From NCBI RefSeq assembly GCF_004376175.1, contig NZ_SNUY01000007.1, positions 1 to 32,000 of the forward strand: 32,000 bases of DNA, written 5' to 3'. A program made the position numbers and the translations under genes. The notes below the pieces were generated by a model. That model was not told where the DNA came from, did not search any database, and was given only the letters and a program-made list of their open reading frames with translations. Shown here in pieces: positions 3,536 to 16,346 of the stretch (positions are counted from its first letter, which is position 1; every line of letters begins with the position of its first letter). Source of the DNA: Halalkalibacterium halodurans (GTDB lineage Bacteria > Bacillota > Bacilli > Bacillales > Bacillaceae_D).

Positions 3536-5119
3536 TTACCTCATTTTTATTAAACTCGCCATGGCACGAAGAGGTTTCGTTACTTTCCATGAAGTACTCT
3601 TCTGTATCTCTTGATACTTCTTTTTATATAGATTTCTTTCTTTTTGTAACTCTTTAAGTTCTTTTGAGAGTACTTGGAGCTCACTTTCTTTGTAACTTAT
3701 AGAAGGTTCCTTTATTTCAAATCCAATCTTTATCGGCTTGTCCCAATTTTTCTCATCAACCCTTGTAACTTTATACTTCTTAGGAAGTCTATTGTTCACT
3801 ATCTCTCTAAAATGATCTACCGACTCAACACAGCCTGAAACAATGATTGATGTCTTATTGTTTTTCAAGTGTTTAATATAACCGTTTAGCTTTAGCTCCC
3901 TCGCTTGTTTCTGAACCCATTTATCAAAGGACGTAGAACTCTGCTTTTTAGAAAGAAGAAAACGCCTTGAGTCTATATTCCCTGTCGGTAATGACGGTAC
4001 CAAAAACTCATTAGCAACTCCACGCCTAAAAGCATCATGAATTGTATCAAAATCAAAATAGTACAATAGATTTTTCCTTTTTCCTTTTGTTTCAGGAAAA
4101 TAATAATCAATAATCGCTTTAGGGATATCCCGCGCTTTTCCTTCCATCGGAAAGAGATGGTTCCTAATGGCCGCCCTGGAATTAATTTCAAGAATACTAG
4201 CTGTATTTGTTTCGTAATCAATAATCATATCAATCCCACATTGGATTAATCCAGGGATAGCTTTACAGGCATCAATAGCTATTTTTTTTATTTCATCTGA
4301 CAAATCATCTGTGGCATCTGTAGAGTCTCCTCCTGATGACACATTGTTTTTTGTTTTTAAGAATACTCTTTCTCCTTCTTTTGGAATGCTATCTAATGTA
4401 TAGCCTACCTTCTCCAAGGTGCTATGGACCTCTTTATCAATCGTAATAGGTAGACCATTCAAAGAAGGGTTTTTATCACGTTCTTTATTTTTAACCCGTA
4501 ATAATGTTCTTATTGTGTTAACACCATCACCAACTACGTTCGCTGGAATTCGTTTAAATGCACCAATGACTTCATTCCCGATAACAAATACTCGATGGTC
4601 TATCCCAACTGCATATCTTTCCACAATAACCTCTGGATAATTTAAATCGTTCCTCACATAGGATAATGCACTTCTAAATTCTTCTTCACTCTTTATGTTG
4701 GCAATAACCCCTTTACCACCTGTACCTTTAGACGGCTTAATCACTAAGGGATAACCTAGTCTTTTAGAGTACTCTACAATCTCTTCATCTGGTACTACTC
4801 CACTAAACTCTTCACCCTCTGGAACAGGAATACCGGCTCTCAAAAGATATTTTTTTGTCAAATGTTTATCAATGCAGATTTTGATAGCCTCACGTGGAAC
4901 AATACTCCCTCTAGAAACTACAAAAGTATATTCCTTACCTTCGTAAGACAAAGAATACCTTAATCGTGATTTTTTTTCAGTCGTATTGAAAAATTTAACC
5001 GTTATACCTCTTCTCCATGCCTCTAACGCTATACTATACATCGATAATGTATAGCCTTTCGCTTTTTGAGGTACCGCATCCTCTAAATGTGGTAACCATT
5101 CTTTATTTGCTTGTTCCAT
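3536..5119 (-). CDS. ATP-grasp ligase paralog (527 aa) with a strongly degenerate acylphosphatase-like domain, a coiled coil and an SxSWKxTxPLR tail
   Basis: ORF track 3536-5143. I prefer the ATG at 5119 (MEQANKEWLPHL), preceded by GGGGGA. Motifs seen: YPLVIKPSKGTGGKGV, RIPANVVGDGVNTIRTLL, NNVSSGGDSTDATD, FPMEGKARDIPKAIIDYYFPETKG. The C-terminus reads ...LKELQKERNLYKKKYQEIQKSTSWKVTKPLRAMASLIKMR. Confidence 0.85.
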   Translation of the reverse strand: MEQANKEWLPHLEDAVPQKAKGYTLSMYSIALEAWRRGITVKFFNTTEKKSRLRYSLSYEGKEYTFVVSRGSIVPREAIKICIDKHLTKKYLLRAGIPVPEGEEFSGVVPDEEIVEYSKRLGYPLVIKPSKGTGGKGVIANIKSEEEFRSALSYVRNDLNYPEVIVERYAVGIDHRVFVIGNEVIGAFKRIPANVVGDGVNTIRTLLRVKNKERDKNPSLNGLPITIDKEVHSTLEKVGYTLDSIPKEGERVFLKTKNNVSSGGDSTDATDDLSDEIKKIAIDACKAIPGLIQCGIDMIIDYETNTASILEINSRAAIRNHLFPMEGKARDIPKAIIDYYFPETKGKRKNLLYYFDFDTIHDAFRRGVANEFLVPSLPTGNIDSRRFLLSKKQSSTSFDKWVQKQARELKLNGYIKHLKNNKTSIIVSGCVESVDHFREIVNNRLPKKYKVTRVDEKNWDKPIKIGFEIKEPSISYKESELQVLSKELKELQKERNLYKKKYQEIQKSTSWKVTKPLRAMASLIKMR

Positions 5120-5143
5120 TAAATATCCCCCTACCTCATTCAA

Positions 5144-13648: not shown

Positions 13649-13670
13649 CGTGACCACCTCCTTCTGCTAT

Positions 13671-16346
13671 TTATGAATGGTTTGTCCGATCAAAAATGAA
13701 CGATTCAATTCTTGAAATGTGCTTTGTGTAACCGAAGTTTGCCTCTACATATGCTTGCGCTTTTTCTACTTGAGATTCGTAAAAATCCGGGTTGTCCATT
13801 AGTTGTATTATTGTTTCCTGAACATCATCTGGTTCAGCATAAAGTGCAGCATCGCCAAACAACTGCTCATAGATTGGTGGAATAACGACAGGTACCCCTA
13901 CCGCCATCGCCTCGAAAATGACTCGCCCAAACGCTTCAATCCAATCGGGATGCGTATAGTAGACGAATACATCAAGTGTAGCTAGAAACTCCTTTGGATG
14001 CATTTCCCCAAATTCATAGACATACCAGTTTTCAGGTAACTCACCGACTACCTTCTTTGGTGCTGCTGCACCACCAAGAACATGGACTTCAAATGGGGCA
14101 GACTCTGGGTAAACTTTAAAAAGTTCCGTTCGATCGATAGGCCACTTCACATACTGGTCACGAGAATGCCGACCAATTTTGATCTTCTCTGATCGAAGCG
14201 GACGGGATGCCCTTTTCCATTCTTGTACATCGATAATATTGACCCAGTCCTCACTGGCTAAGGAAATCGGATGCAGTTCATGGCTATGATGTGTTAGCAA
14301 AGCTTCGCGGACAAGTGGCCCAATCGGATACCATGTACCTGTCGTCCCGAAATATTCCTTCATACGTTTCGCACAATCAGGAATCGTATACAATGTATTT
14401 CCTTTTTTGCTATAATCCCGCTTCGGCGGCTGATTTACGATGACATTCACACGCTTTGCTTTTACATTAGGTAAATATTTTTGCCACTCCTGTAAAACTG
14501 GGGGGTGACGGATAATCAATAAATCACAGCTAATTTCCTCACCATAGACAACCATTTGTACAAGATCCCCATCGAGAAGCTCGCGGATGTGCGGGTTCAT
14601 TTCTTTACGTGATTGAAAATCATACCGTGACATTTGCATAAGACCCGTCCGAAGCCCTTTTTGTTTCTGCGCCTTAATTTCTTCCACATTCGACATATTG
14701 GTCCCGCCTAGTAGGCGAAACTCGGAAGCAATGATTACATCAAAATGGCGCCGCCCATCAGCTGTTTTTTTCTCCCGCTGTGGCCACATAGGCTCCGGCA
14801 CAGCAAATAAACGGGGTTCCTGCGGGAAATCATAGCGGAGGGACTCTGCCACTCGATGATAGTGCGAGTAACTGTCGAAATACTCTTTACGCACGCCCAT
14901 AAAATATCCGTGAAAGCCAAATGCATGATTTCCGGTCAAAGATCCCTTGGTCTGTCTTTGAAAGGAATATGGACCTGACGCTAAGTCAACAACAGCTTTT
15001 TCACCAAACACTTTTTTTAGGCGGCGTTTAAATTCACCATCAGCTCCAAACCGTACACTGTCCCAAAAACCAAGCTTCTCCATGACAAGATTCTTGCGAA
15101 ACATAAGTGAAGACATGTTTGCAAAAATATATTCTCCCGGCTTCCCTCTTCGAAAAAATGTTAGATCTTCTGTCATCCTTGCTTGCTGAGAAGTATTGGC
15201 AATCACCTGAGGATGTTCCATCAAATGGGTAACTTGCGTTTCAATCTTTGCTGGGTGTGACCAATCATCAGCATCATTAATCGTGACAAACTCGCCTGTC
15301 GCTTGCTGTAATGCTATATTTCTTGCCACATAAGCACCGCTATTGATCTCCGTTTTTAAATACTTCACTCGATCATCGATCGCTGCATAACGCTTGATCG
15401 AAGCGGCTGTGCTGTCAGTGCTGCAGTCGTCAACGACCAAAATCTCTATATTTGTCCAAGTTTGCTGCAAGATCGACTCAATAGATGTAGCAATCCCATC
15501 CTCTGAATTGTACGCAGGGATGATCACCGTTACTTTCGGCTCCATATTAGGTTTAACGTTAGTTGCTTTTGCTGCCACATCAATCGAATCGTACGGTGTT
15601 CGTTCTTTTTCGCCCGTTTGCTTTAGCCTAATAGGGGCAATATTAAAATGTGCTAAAGCTTTATTAATCCATTTGACCCGATCTAAAGGGTGCTCTTCTA
15701 AGTTGGCTGCCGCTAAATACAAATCTGGATGTGGATACTCTTTTATTTTATCGGCTATTCGTTGCTTCCCTTTTTCAATCTCGTCAAGCAATTTATAGCA
15801 CTCAGCCTCAATGATCGCTGCACGCCGTAGAAATGAACGCTCCGCTTTGCCTGCAGTTGCTTGTTGCAAATACGTTAAACATTCCCGAGCATCTGTGCGC
15901 GTATATTGATTTGCATGCCATAAAGCTAGCTCCCAAGCGGCAAGCTGCCTTAAGTAACGATTGTCCGCTTTCAGTAGTCCCCTTAAATCAGCCAAAGCTC
16001 TCTTGGTAAACCCTAGTTCATACAAGCTATATTTCAGTTTCTTTATCCGCTGCTGGGCTTTTTTCTTTTTCCACGATGAACTAAACAGCTGTCTCCAACC
16101 TTTTTTTCTCGTGACAAGTTGAACGATCATTTTAAGCAACTTTTTCACTTGTCTTAGAAAAGCAACTGGCCAGCTGTTTTTTATTCCATAGTAGTAAGTT
16201 TCGAGCGCTCGCAATTTGCGGCGCTCTCGTTCATTCTCTTTCTCCATATTAGAGATCTCTAGTTCTAGCTGCTGTATTTCCGAAAGCAGCTGTTCATTTT
16301 TTCTTTTTCTACCCTCTAATTCAAACTTCTGCTCGTTCATCTTCAT
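13671..16346 (-). CDS. Large bifunctional glycosyltransferase (891 aa): N-terminal coiled coil and helical repeats, GT2 (GT-A) domain, GT4-like (GT-B) domain
   Basis: ORF track 13671-16403. I prefer the ATG at 16346 (MKMNEQKF), 9 nt after GGAGA; it overlaps the upstream stop (16321-16323) by 26 nt. GT2 motifs: KVTVIIPAYNSE, LVVDDCSTD, INDADDW. GT-B motif: HPDWIEAFGRVIFEAMAVGVPVV. Confidence 0.85.
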   Translation of the reverse strand: MKMNEQKFELEGRKRKNEQLLSEIQQLELEISNMEKENERERRKLRALETYYYGIKNSWPVAFLRQVKKLLKMIVQLVTRKKGWRQLFSSSWKKKKAQQRIKKLKYSLYELGFTKRALADLRGLLKADNRYLRQLAAWELALWHANQYTRTDARECLTYLQQATAGKAERSFLRRAAIIEAECYKLLDEIEKGKQRIADKIKEYPHPDLYLAAANLEEHPLDRVKWINKALAHFNIAPIRLKQTGEKERTPYDSIDVAAKATNVKPNMEPKVTVIIPAYNSEDGIATSIESILQQTWTNIEILVVDDCSTDSTAASIKRYAAIDDRVKYLKTEINSGAYVARNIALQQATGEFVTINDADDWSHPAKIETQVTHLMEHPQVIANTSQQARMTEDLTFFRRGKPGEYIFANMSSLMFRKNLVMEKLGFWDSVRFGADGEFKRRLKKVFGEKAVVDLASGPYSFQRQTKGSLTGNHAFGFHGYFMGVRKEYFDSYSHYHRVAESLRYDFPQEPRLFAVPEPMWPQREKKTADGRRHFDVIIASEFRLLGGTNMSNVEEIKAQKQKGLRTGLMQMSRYDFQSRKEMNPHIRELLDGDLVQMVVYGEEISCDLLIIRHPPVLQEWQKYLPNVKAKRVNVIVNQPPKRDYSKKGNTLYTIPDCAKRMKEYFGTTGTWYPIGPLVREALLTHHSHELHPISLASEDWVNIIDVQEWKRASRPLRSEKIKIGRHSRDQYVKWPIDRTELFKVYPESAPFEVHVLGGAAAPKKVVGELPENWYVYEFGEMHPKEFLATLDVFVYYTHPDWIEAFGRVIFEAMAVGVPVVIPPIYEQLFGDAALYAEPDDVQETIIQLMDNPDFYESQVEKAQAYVEANFGYTKHISRIESFIFDRTNHS

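Follow-up and report, generated by a model that had tools for sequence, protein, structure and literature searches.

The closest described relative of the element reported here is part of WbdD, the methyltransferase/kinase of Gram-negative O-antigen capping (E. coli O8 and O9/O9a; Klebsiella O3/O5). WbdD is a trimer held by a coiled coil (PMC3482155), and this coil, which is ~20 nm long in O9a, serves as the ruler for O-antigen length (PMC5082667). An amphipathic helix at the C-terminus places the protein on the cytoplasmic membrane (PMC3447403, PMC3482155), and the C-terminal region recruits the polymerase WbdA (PMC3482155, PMC11231755). The O9a protein (JX235676, 708 amino acids, aa) was well expressed and purifiable as a 1-600 construct, whereas the full-length form was hard to solubilise (PMC3447403). 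In WbbB of Klebsiella O12 and ORF6 of Klebsiella O7 a terminator, a coiled coil and polymerase glycosyltransferases follow one another in single proteins (PMC11231755). Here we analyse a coiled-coil module that carries the motif S-x-S-W-(K/R)-x-T-x-P-L-R and an amphipathic tail, found in a 32,000-nucleotide stretch of the Halalkalibacterium halodurans genome (NCBI RefSeq assembly GCF_004376175.1, contig NZ_SNUY01000007.1, positions 1 to 32,000; hereafter the window). It ends four long ATP-grasp ligases (lig1 to lig4) and stands near the N-terminus of a TupA-like ATP-grasp protein, all encoded by one operon on the minus strand, on which every feature of the window given below lies. The operon is very probably the locus of teichuronopeptide, since homologues of the TupA-like protein carry the database name 'teichuronopeptide biosynthesis' and this wall polymer, which combines poly-gamma-L-glutamate with polyglucuronate, is known from this alkaliphile (PMC8153356). 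Database proteins with 98-99% identity to proteins of the window belong to H. halodurans or stand in JGI records.

The preliminary description of this DNA had used WbdD as an analogy, and the relationship turned out to be closer than that. The wbdD genes were translated from the O8 cluster of E. coli IAI1 and from an O9-family E. coli cluster, and in both proteins the motif follows the coiled coil: SRSWRITQPLRW at aa 308 of WbdD O8 (425 aa; in context LHNSRSWRITQPLRWLSL) and SRSWRMTKGYRY at aa 592 of WbdD O9 (708 aa; in context IHRSRSWRMTKGYRYLGL). Both match a profile made from 197 motif segments of outside database proteins, aligned on the motif tryptophan (Trp0), with E-values (E) of 9e-12 and 1e-9, respectively. 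Because in WbdD O8 and O9 the coil bears the motif where it comes nearest to the membrane, the module is, on this sequence evidence, homologous to the coil end and the start of the membrane-binding region of WbdD. Residue 600 of the translated O9-family protein falls just past the motif. The likeness covers the order of parts (catalytic head, parallel coiled coil, S-R-S-W-R-x-T motif, basic amphipathic helices), a Wzm/Wzt-type exporter encoded within the operon, and the probable mode of action, that of a peripheral protein working on a polyprenol-linked polymer. The differences lie in the head, which in the window is an ATP-grasp amide ligase with an acylphosphatase-like domain, in the coil (~130 residues in WbdD O9a and 40-52 in the window, roughly ~20 nm vs 6-8 nm), and in the tail past the motif, which has ~110 residues in WbdD and 8-16 in the window ligases. 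The window host is Gram-positive and its polymer is teichuronopeptide, and terminator activity, trimer state and polymerase recruitment are traits known on the WbdD side. Since in WbdD the motif opens the C-terminal region that holds the protein at the membrane and recruits WbdA, a shared membrane-tethering, complex-forming module is the best-supported reading. We put at about 0.6 the probability that the module is an oligomerising coiled-coil stalk with a cationic amphipathic foot, which serves to keep the peripheral enzymes that make teichuronopeptide at the membrane.

Translation of the window confirmed the four ligase tails and their coordinates as quoted in the preliminary description. 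The lig1 module (aa 478-535; 3539-3712) consists of a heptad coil, STSWKVTKPLR at 3566-3598 and the amphipathic basic tail AMASLIKMR, and that of lig2 (aa 476-543; 7103-7306) of a 44-residue helix, SSSWKVTAPLR at 7127-7159 and the tail KLMSLIKN. The lig3 module (aa 484-552; 8783-8989) has a coil, SRSWKSTVFLR at 8831-8863 and the tail KLGDYAKSLIRPQANG, while the lig4 module (aa 510-572 of the long open reading frame, ORF; 10516-10704) has a coil, SISWQLTLPFR at 10561-10593 and the tail KIADIVKWVGRLFEK. The 197-segment profile matches the four at E 5e-17 to 2e-11 (lig1 5e-17, lig2 6e-14, lig3 2e-11, lig4 1e-11). All four tails are amphipathic, with a hydrophobic moment (muH) of 0.56 (lig1) to 0.82 (lig4), which lies in the top 0.3-3.4% of shuffles, and a net charge of +3. 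A relaxed regular expression, S.[SL]W[KQRP].[TA]..[LFW]R, run on the six-frame translation of the window, matches exactly five sites, all within the ORFs of the four ligases and the TupA-like protein, and a heptad-like charged helix precedes each of them. Chance origin of the motif was rejected: the window's own six-frame residue frequencies predict 0.004 matches vs the 5 observed, and in a scan of one genome per species the exact 9-mer SWKVT[KA]PLR occurs 445 times vs ~11 expected.

The anatomy of the module is strict. Among the 197 aligned segments Ser-3, Trp0 and Arg+7 are present in 100%, Ser-1 and Thr+3 in 98% and Pro+5 in 96%, and position +1 is Lys or Arg in 94%. Upstream of the motif Leu predominates at -27, -20, -13 and -6, with Asn, Leu, Ile or Val at -23, -16 and -9, and therefore the heptad register is locked to the motif; the window ligases, WbdD O8 and WbdD O9 all keep this register, and the a/d positions of the ligases are hydrophobic over 5-6 heptads. 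Downstream, positions +6, +9, +12 and +13 are hydrophobic and +8, +14 and +15 are Lys or Arg, and many of the sequences stop within ~10 residues past +15. The AlphaFold2 (AF2) models of lig2 and the TupA-like protein show a helix-break-helix arrangement with the break at the first invariant Ser; for lig2 (53 sequences, mean pLDDT 90) helix 480-523 is predicted to run unbroken up to N524-S525, where it breaks, and a terminal helix follows at 526-542. The motif Trp stands 41 (lig1), 52 (lig2), 45 (lig3) and 40 (lig4) residues past the end of the acylphosphatase-like domain, so that the coil lengths do differ between the paralogues, as had been noticed before.

Close relatives of the ligases differ in whether they have the module at all. 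Coil and tail occur in 49 of the 120 best lig2 homologues, and most of the 71 with no tail match (467-509 aa) stop right after the acylphosphatase-like domain, from which it follows that the module is gained or lost as a unit. The domain-to-Trp spacer measures 45 residues in most of the 33 lig3-type sequences compared, and lig2-type orthologues have spacers of, for example, 52, 59 or 66 residues, which change by heptad steps; such conserved, heptad-quantised lengths suggest that the distance matters. The four window ligases are mutually 43-48% identical and are thus paralogues, so the tail that they share shows descent and not portability. The claim that the module is portable therefore stands on the TupA-like copy and on carriers outside the window. 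Common descent alone was in turn rejected, as it covers the four ligases and leaves the TupA-like protein, the unrelated carriers and the tail-less close relatives unexplained.

The TupA-like protein belongs to a different ATP-grasp family from the four ligases, and its module (aa 11-128; 13274-13627) lies at the N-terminus, where a first coil is followed by SRLWKYTAVWR (aa 59-69; 13451-13483), an amphipathic helix (aa 66-79; 13421-13462), a loop and a second coil. The AF2 model has helices 11-58 and 60-64, which end in breaks at S59 and T65, respectively, and then the amphipathic helix, the loop and helix 85-128. The window copy matches the profile weakly (E 0.003). By comparison with its homologues it is nevertheless a diverged true member of the module, because 93 of 120 TupA-like homologues carry an N-terminal match and many of these are canonical (e.g. 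KSKVWKVTKPLRKF); the N-terminal coil and motif that the preliminary description had reported for this protein are borne out in that sense.

Outside the window the module is spread over many enzyme classes. A profile of 15 tails was run against 1.84 billion representative proteins and matches 5190 protein clusters at E<=0.001; this exhaustive search replaced an earlier, shallow word-index protein search with the tail profile, which had given 14 short proteins with the motif confirmed. From the genome scan, 138 of the 445 occurrences were confirmed by tblastn and the best 80 loci, holding 82 motif ORFs, were fetched. The loci span Proteobacteria, Firmicutes, Actinobacteria, Bacteroidota, Cyanobacteria, Acidobacteria, Saccharibacteria, Bdellovibrio and Methanobrevibacter. 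In most of the 82 ORFs the motif lies 3-39 residues from the C-terminus (internal or N-proximal in ~15), and a heptad-like charged helix usually precedes it. The carriers have GT2 (~22), class I methyltransferase (~22, nine of them NodS + PIG-L deacetylase) or GT4 (~10) domains, as well as FkbM, RgpF, WbsX and sulfotransferase domains; the picture is unchanged in a second sample, of 59 proteins, except that further ATP-grasp families join the list. Homologues of TagG/Wzm and TagH/Wzt are both present in 29 of the 80 loci, and in 17 of the 43 full 20-kb loci when counted within 10 kb. The preliminary description was thus right to place SxSWRxTxPLR-like motifs beside coiled coils in the glycosyltransferases and modification enzymes that ABC-transporter-dependent loci encode, and the motif search with domain and locus tabulation that it called for returned mostly sugar-polymer enzymes. 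Two to four tail-bearing proteins are encoded by 10 of the 80 loci, and the window operon encodes five.

The motif and tail are covered by no Pfam or NCBIfam model in scans of the window proteins, and the motif itself is named in no paper of the literature searched, although an earlier mention is possible since key WbdD papers lay outside it. The architecture and its role in WbdD-like terminators are already known. What appears to be new in the literature searched is the near-universal signature at the membrane-proximal coil end, its breadth, methanogens included, and its occurrence, in C- and N-terminal orientations, on ATP-grasp peptide ligases of a Gram-positive wall-polymer pathway. The WbdD-type layout of Gram-negative O-antigen capping is thereby extended to the ATP-grasp ligases of a Gram-positive cell-wall polymer, one that is linked to alkaliphily. 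As a searchable signature the motif tells which end of the stalk faces the membrane in coiled-coil glycan-assembly proteins, and it can be used to find candidate complexes of terminators, polymerases and modifiers in any genome.

Single-chain carriers complete the comparison with known systems. A Phytobacter protein (L050) contains a methyltransferase, a coil, the motif at aa 912 and then two GT2 domains, and its layout matches that of Klebsiella O7 ORF6 as the latter has been described. In this multidomain protein the motif stands at the junction, inside the chain between the coil and the membrane-proximal glycosyltransferases, and the N-terminal position that it has in the window's TupA-like protein is similar. 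WbbB and ORF6 are each one polypeptide, whereas the window enzymes are separate and the large glycosyltransferases of the operon have no significant motif.

Several further carriers were seen. Canonical coil-plus-motif tails are encoded on seven Methanobrevibacter (Archaea) contigs (L016, L023, L025, L043, L045, L049, L066); the L066 carrier is an RgpF + GT2 protein, and L049 has two adjacent carriers. Loci of Thalassobacillus devorans (L012) and Alkalihalobacterium chitinilyticum (L018) are related to the window, each with three consecutive tail-bearing proteins of 519-564 aa, which match the window ligases in size, and with an orthologue of a large glycosyltransferase. Tandem coil-plus-motif units, two or three at distances of ~50-120 residues, occur in P0016, P0017, P0019, P0021, P0030, P0103 and P0127; P0021 has SRSWRVTAPLRR twice, and P0030 (1346 aa) has SRSWRITRPLR three times near its N-terminus. 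Among the 145 new top-scoring profile matches (P0015-P0159) 86 are shorter than 200 aa, and 78 of these 86 begin with Met. A part of the short matches may represent coil-plus-foot proteins that stand alone, and another part fragments of gene calls on short contigs; P0008, a protein of 97 aa, is encoded on a 126-kb contig.

If the module tethers enzymes to the membrane, its parts would work as follows. The stalk would be a short parallel coiled coil, spanning the 40-52 residues from the acylphosphatase-like domain to Trp, and the hinge and foot would be formed by S-x-S-W-(K/R)-x-T-x-P-L-R and the cationic amphipathic helix of 10-15 residues behind it. The coil would oligomerise the enzyme, and oligomerisation would cluster several weak amphipathic helices, so that the complex would be held on the cytoplasmic face of the membrane, the site where the lipid-linked polyglucuronate chain would grow before TagGH-like export. 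The catalytic ATP-grasp head would then be kept fixed a few nanometres above the membrane. In this manner the module may bring to the place of teichuronopeptide assembly the four ligases that resemble cyanophycin synthetase, as well as the TupA-like ligase with its N-terminal copy. Once tethered there, the ligases probably attach the glutamate peptide or lengthen it. Membrane binding, oligomeric state and the co-assembly of different enzymes are thus what we infer; the amphipathic tails with their net charge of +3 would agree with a hold at the membrane, and 69 of the 82 motif ORFs are without transmembrane (TM)-like segments, as befits peripheral enzymes. MinD and FtsA have a short cationic amphipathic helix at their very C-terminus, and membrane binding by this helix becomes useful only once the protein oligomerises. 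The module would follow the same principle and has no sequence relationship to them; the MinD and FtsA helices have neither the conserved SxSW...TxPLR hinge nor a preceding coiled coil. The finding raises the questions whether teichuronopeptide is made by a membrane-tethered multi-enzyme array and whether the heptad-quantised stalk length governs where the peptide is placed.

A number of observations weigh against the tethering model. The motif occurs in no PDB sequence, two tail-profile searches having returned generic coiled coils or nothing, and the AF2 models are monomers, which are silent on oligomers and membranes. WbdD O9 has Gly-Tyr where the motif has Pro-Leu. The a/d pattern of the family, with Leu at d and Asn or beta-branched residues at a, is dimer-like, whereas WbdD is a trimer (PMC3482155). 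A helix lying in the plane of the membrane needs, by itself, no invariant S-x-S-W...T-x-P-L-R, and the strictness of the motif across phyla suggests an additional, specific role. In a hand-drawn 100-degree helical wheel the hydrophobic residues occupy one face, and Trp0, Thr+3 and Arg+7 the opposite one. Through these three residues the motif could be a recognition surface for a universal feature of glycan-assembly sites, e.g. the phosphate/pyrophosphate head of the polyprenol carrier or an anionic lipid, which we offer as a tentative and rather improbable extension. If it were true, the module would be an unannotated domain family with more than 5000 clusters in Bacteria and methanogens, it would position peripheral enzymes of many kinds where lipid-linked polymers emerge, and it would mark the membrane-proximal end of every 'ruler' protein.

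The preliminary description had proposed docking to the membrane or to a partner at the exporter. Membrane tethering and complex formation are the part of this proposal that is best supported, while docking to the exporter is unlikely as the conserved function, for Wzm and Wzt are found together within 10 kb in only 17 of the 43 full-length loci. In its specific form the proposal has the motif bind, as a peptide ligand, to one defined partner (the ABC exporter or the polymerising glycosyltransferase), by which ligases and polymerase would be gathered at the exporter. The recruitment of WbdA by the C-terminal region of WbdD (PMC3482155, PMC11231755) speaks for it, as do the single helix face that the invariant Trp, Thr and Arg seem to share apart from the hydrophobic residues, the 10 loci with several tail-bearing proteins, and the five such proteins encoded next to the TagGH-like genes of the window. 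However, WbdA, WbdB and WbdC of E. coli have no match to the tail profile, and the 891-aa, polymerase-like glycosyltransferase of the window lacks a significant copy. Moreover, a nearly identical motif serves unrelated enzymes and pathways in distant phyla and in the methanogen Methanobrevibacter, so no pathway-specific partner, none being so conserved, explains its conservation. We regard specific docking as unlikely.

By fold the catalytic heads of the four ligases are closest to CphA1, CphA2 and GshAB (Foldseek, E ~1e-25). They match the cyanophycin synthetase NCBIfam profile at E ~1e-67 to 1e-61, which is below the family cut-offs (208-229 bits for the ligases, 850-877 for CphA1), and only over ~positions 160-480 of ~870. 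Judged by profile, then, the ligases resemble a part of cyanophycin synthetase, the G domain, and are not members of the family, for which a full-length match over the N, G and M domains is needed. They are like cyanophycin synthetases and GshAB in the ATP-grasp head, by profile and fold, and differ from them by the added acylphosphatase-like domain, coil and tail; the ligase tail is aligned by none of the structures matched by Foldseek. The NCBI name 'acylphosphatase' for the ligase family (3536-12231, P0160-P0279) comes from the small internal acylphosphatase-like domain, the bulk of the protein being ATP-grasp, and so misleads for these ligases. Four ligase homologues of 825-850 aa (P0187, P0211, P0216, P0276) are fused to a PGA_cap domain.

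By analogy with WbdD and WbbB, the ligases could cap the non-reducing end, with the coil length of each paralogue setting chain length at capping. The homology to the WbdD module would agree with this, and so would the distal position of the catalytic heads relative to the coil, which known terminators share (PMC11231755), as well as the spacers, which differ between paralogues, are conserved within orthologue groups and vary by heptad steps. On the other hand, the nearest structures are polymerising cyanophycin synthetases, the coil of WbdD O9a has three to four times the length of the window coils, and most of the 120 best lig2 homologues have no coil. The TagH-like ATPase of the operon has two nucleotide-binding domains and, in the NCBIfam scan, no matched C-terminal carbohydrate-binding, cap-reading extension, and the AF2 model of the TupA-like protein puts its module at the N-terminus, a place that does not let it hold a distal head at a distance in like manner. 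The operon also holds four paralogous ligases, two further ATP-grasp enzymes, a racemase and a CapA-like gene, and its polymer has a long poly-gamma-glutamate part (PMC8153356), all of which indicates peptide synthesis rather than a single cap. The ligases, racemase and CapA-like gene fit glutamate-peptide building better than capping, because the four paralogues resemble the G domain of cyanophycin synthetase, sit beside the racemase, the CapA-like gene and the TupA-like ligase, and the product is teichuronopeptide. A terminator and ruler function of the window ligases is therefore doubtful.

Less likely still is that the motif is only a structural end-cap, a termination or trigger element that fixes the register and oligomeric state of the coiled coil without contact to membrane or partner: the strict lock between heptads and motif, the Ser and Thr at helix breaks in the AF2 models, the tandem units of P0016, P0017, P0019, P0021 and P0030 and the conservation over unrelated pathways, which an intramolecular role would account for, are outweighed by the basic amphipathic helix that almost always follows the motif, by carriers that must act on lipid-linked substrates, and by the link between the same WbdD region and membrane location (PMC3447403).

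The preliminary description had also seen a weaker version of the module in the 891-aa GT2 + GT4 protein, through which the polymerase was to be joined to the ligases, and this claim was not supported. Within its N-terminus (aa 1-82; 16101-16346) this protein has a coil, NSWPVAFLR at 16152-16178 and a basic amphipathic helix (muH 0.87, net charge +8). NSWPVAFLR gives no match to the tail profile at E<=10, its heptad register is off by 2 residues relative to the family, and the orthologue in L018 (58% identical) has NRIWKLASIVV at the motif place. Membership was thus rejected as unsupported; the protein keeps only the layout of coil, Trp and basic amphipathic helix, and is at most a degenerate, unconfirmed relative of the module. 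The 853-aa GT2 + GT4 protein begins, without a coil, with a different amphipathic helix, MLRLVKKSVIGLVDWFLYKAL, which is kept in the Thalassobacillus orthologue (L012:2176-4122). A TPR-like helical region ahead of the GT2 domain is common to both large glycosyltransferases.

The operon is long and, as judged from ORFs, Pfam and NCBIfam, runs from ~24.6 kb down to 2.3 kb of the window. It starts with GT4 and GT2 glycosyltransferases, followed by the exporter genes (18884-21301), which thus lie within the same operon as the module carriers: a TagG/Wzm-like permease (20504-21301; NCBIfam) and a TagH-like ATPase with two nucleotide-binding domains (18884-20488; NCBIfam). This ATPase is a fusion of 534 aa, with nucleotide-binding matches at ~aa 55-262 and 300-515. 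Next come the two large GT2 + GT4 proteins of 853 aa (16321-18882) and 891 aa (13671-16346), both assigned with Pfam/NCBIfam, and the TupA-like ATP-grasp gene (12179-13657), which matches PF14305 with 316.7 bits at aa 227-463 (gathering cut-off 25). The block bearing the ligase modules (3536-12231) consists of lig4 (10513-12231), lig3 (8780-10438), lig2 (7100-8731) and lig1 (3536-5143), each of 535-572 aa with ATP-grasp and acylphosphatase-like domains (Pfam, NCBIfam); between lig2 and lig1 it holds a PGA_cap/CapA-like gene (5915-6988) and an Asp/Glu racemase gene (5144-5863). The last gene encodes a short, tail-less ATP-grasp protein (2258-3370); these three assignments come from Pfam/NCBIfam.

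Two minor features of the block were observed. The longest ORF of lig4 reaches 53 bases into the end of the TupA-like gene (window 12156-12231); translation more probably starts at an internal ATG at 12156 (MEQINHQWLPHL..., which matches the paralogues' N-termini). The G+C content is 34-38% at window positions 2001-10000, which contain the distal ligase, racemase and CapA-like genes, vs 40-47% for most of the remaining window, which hints that this section of the operon has had a history of its own.

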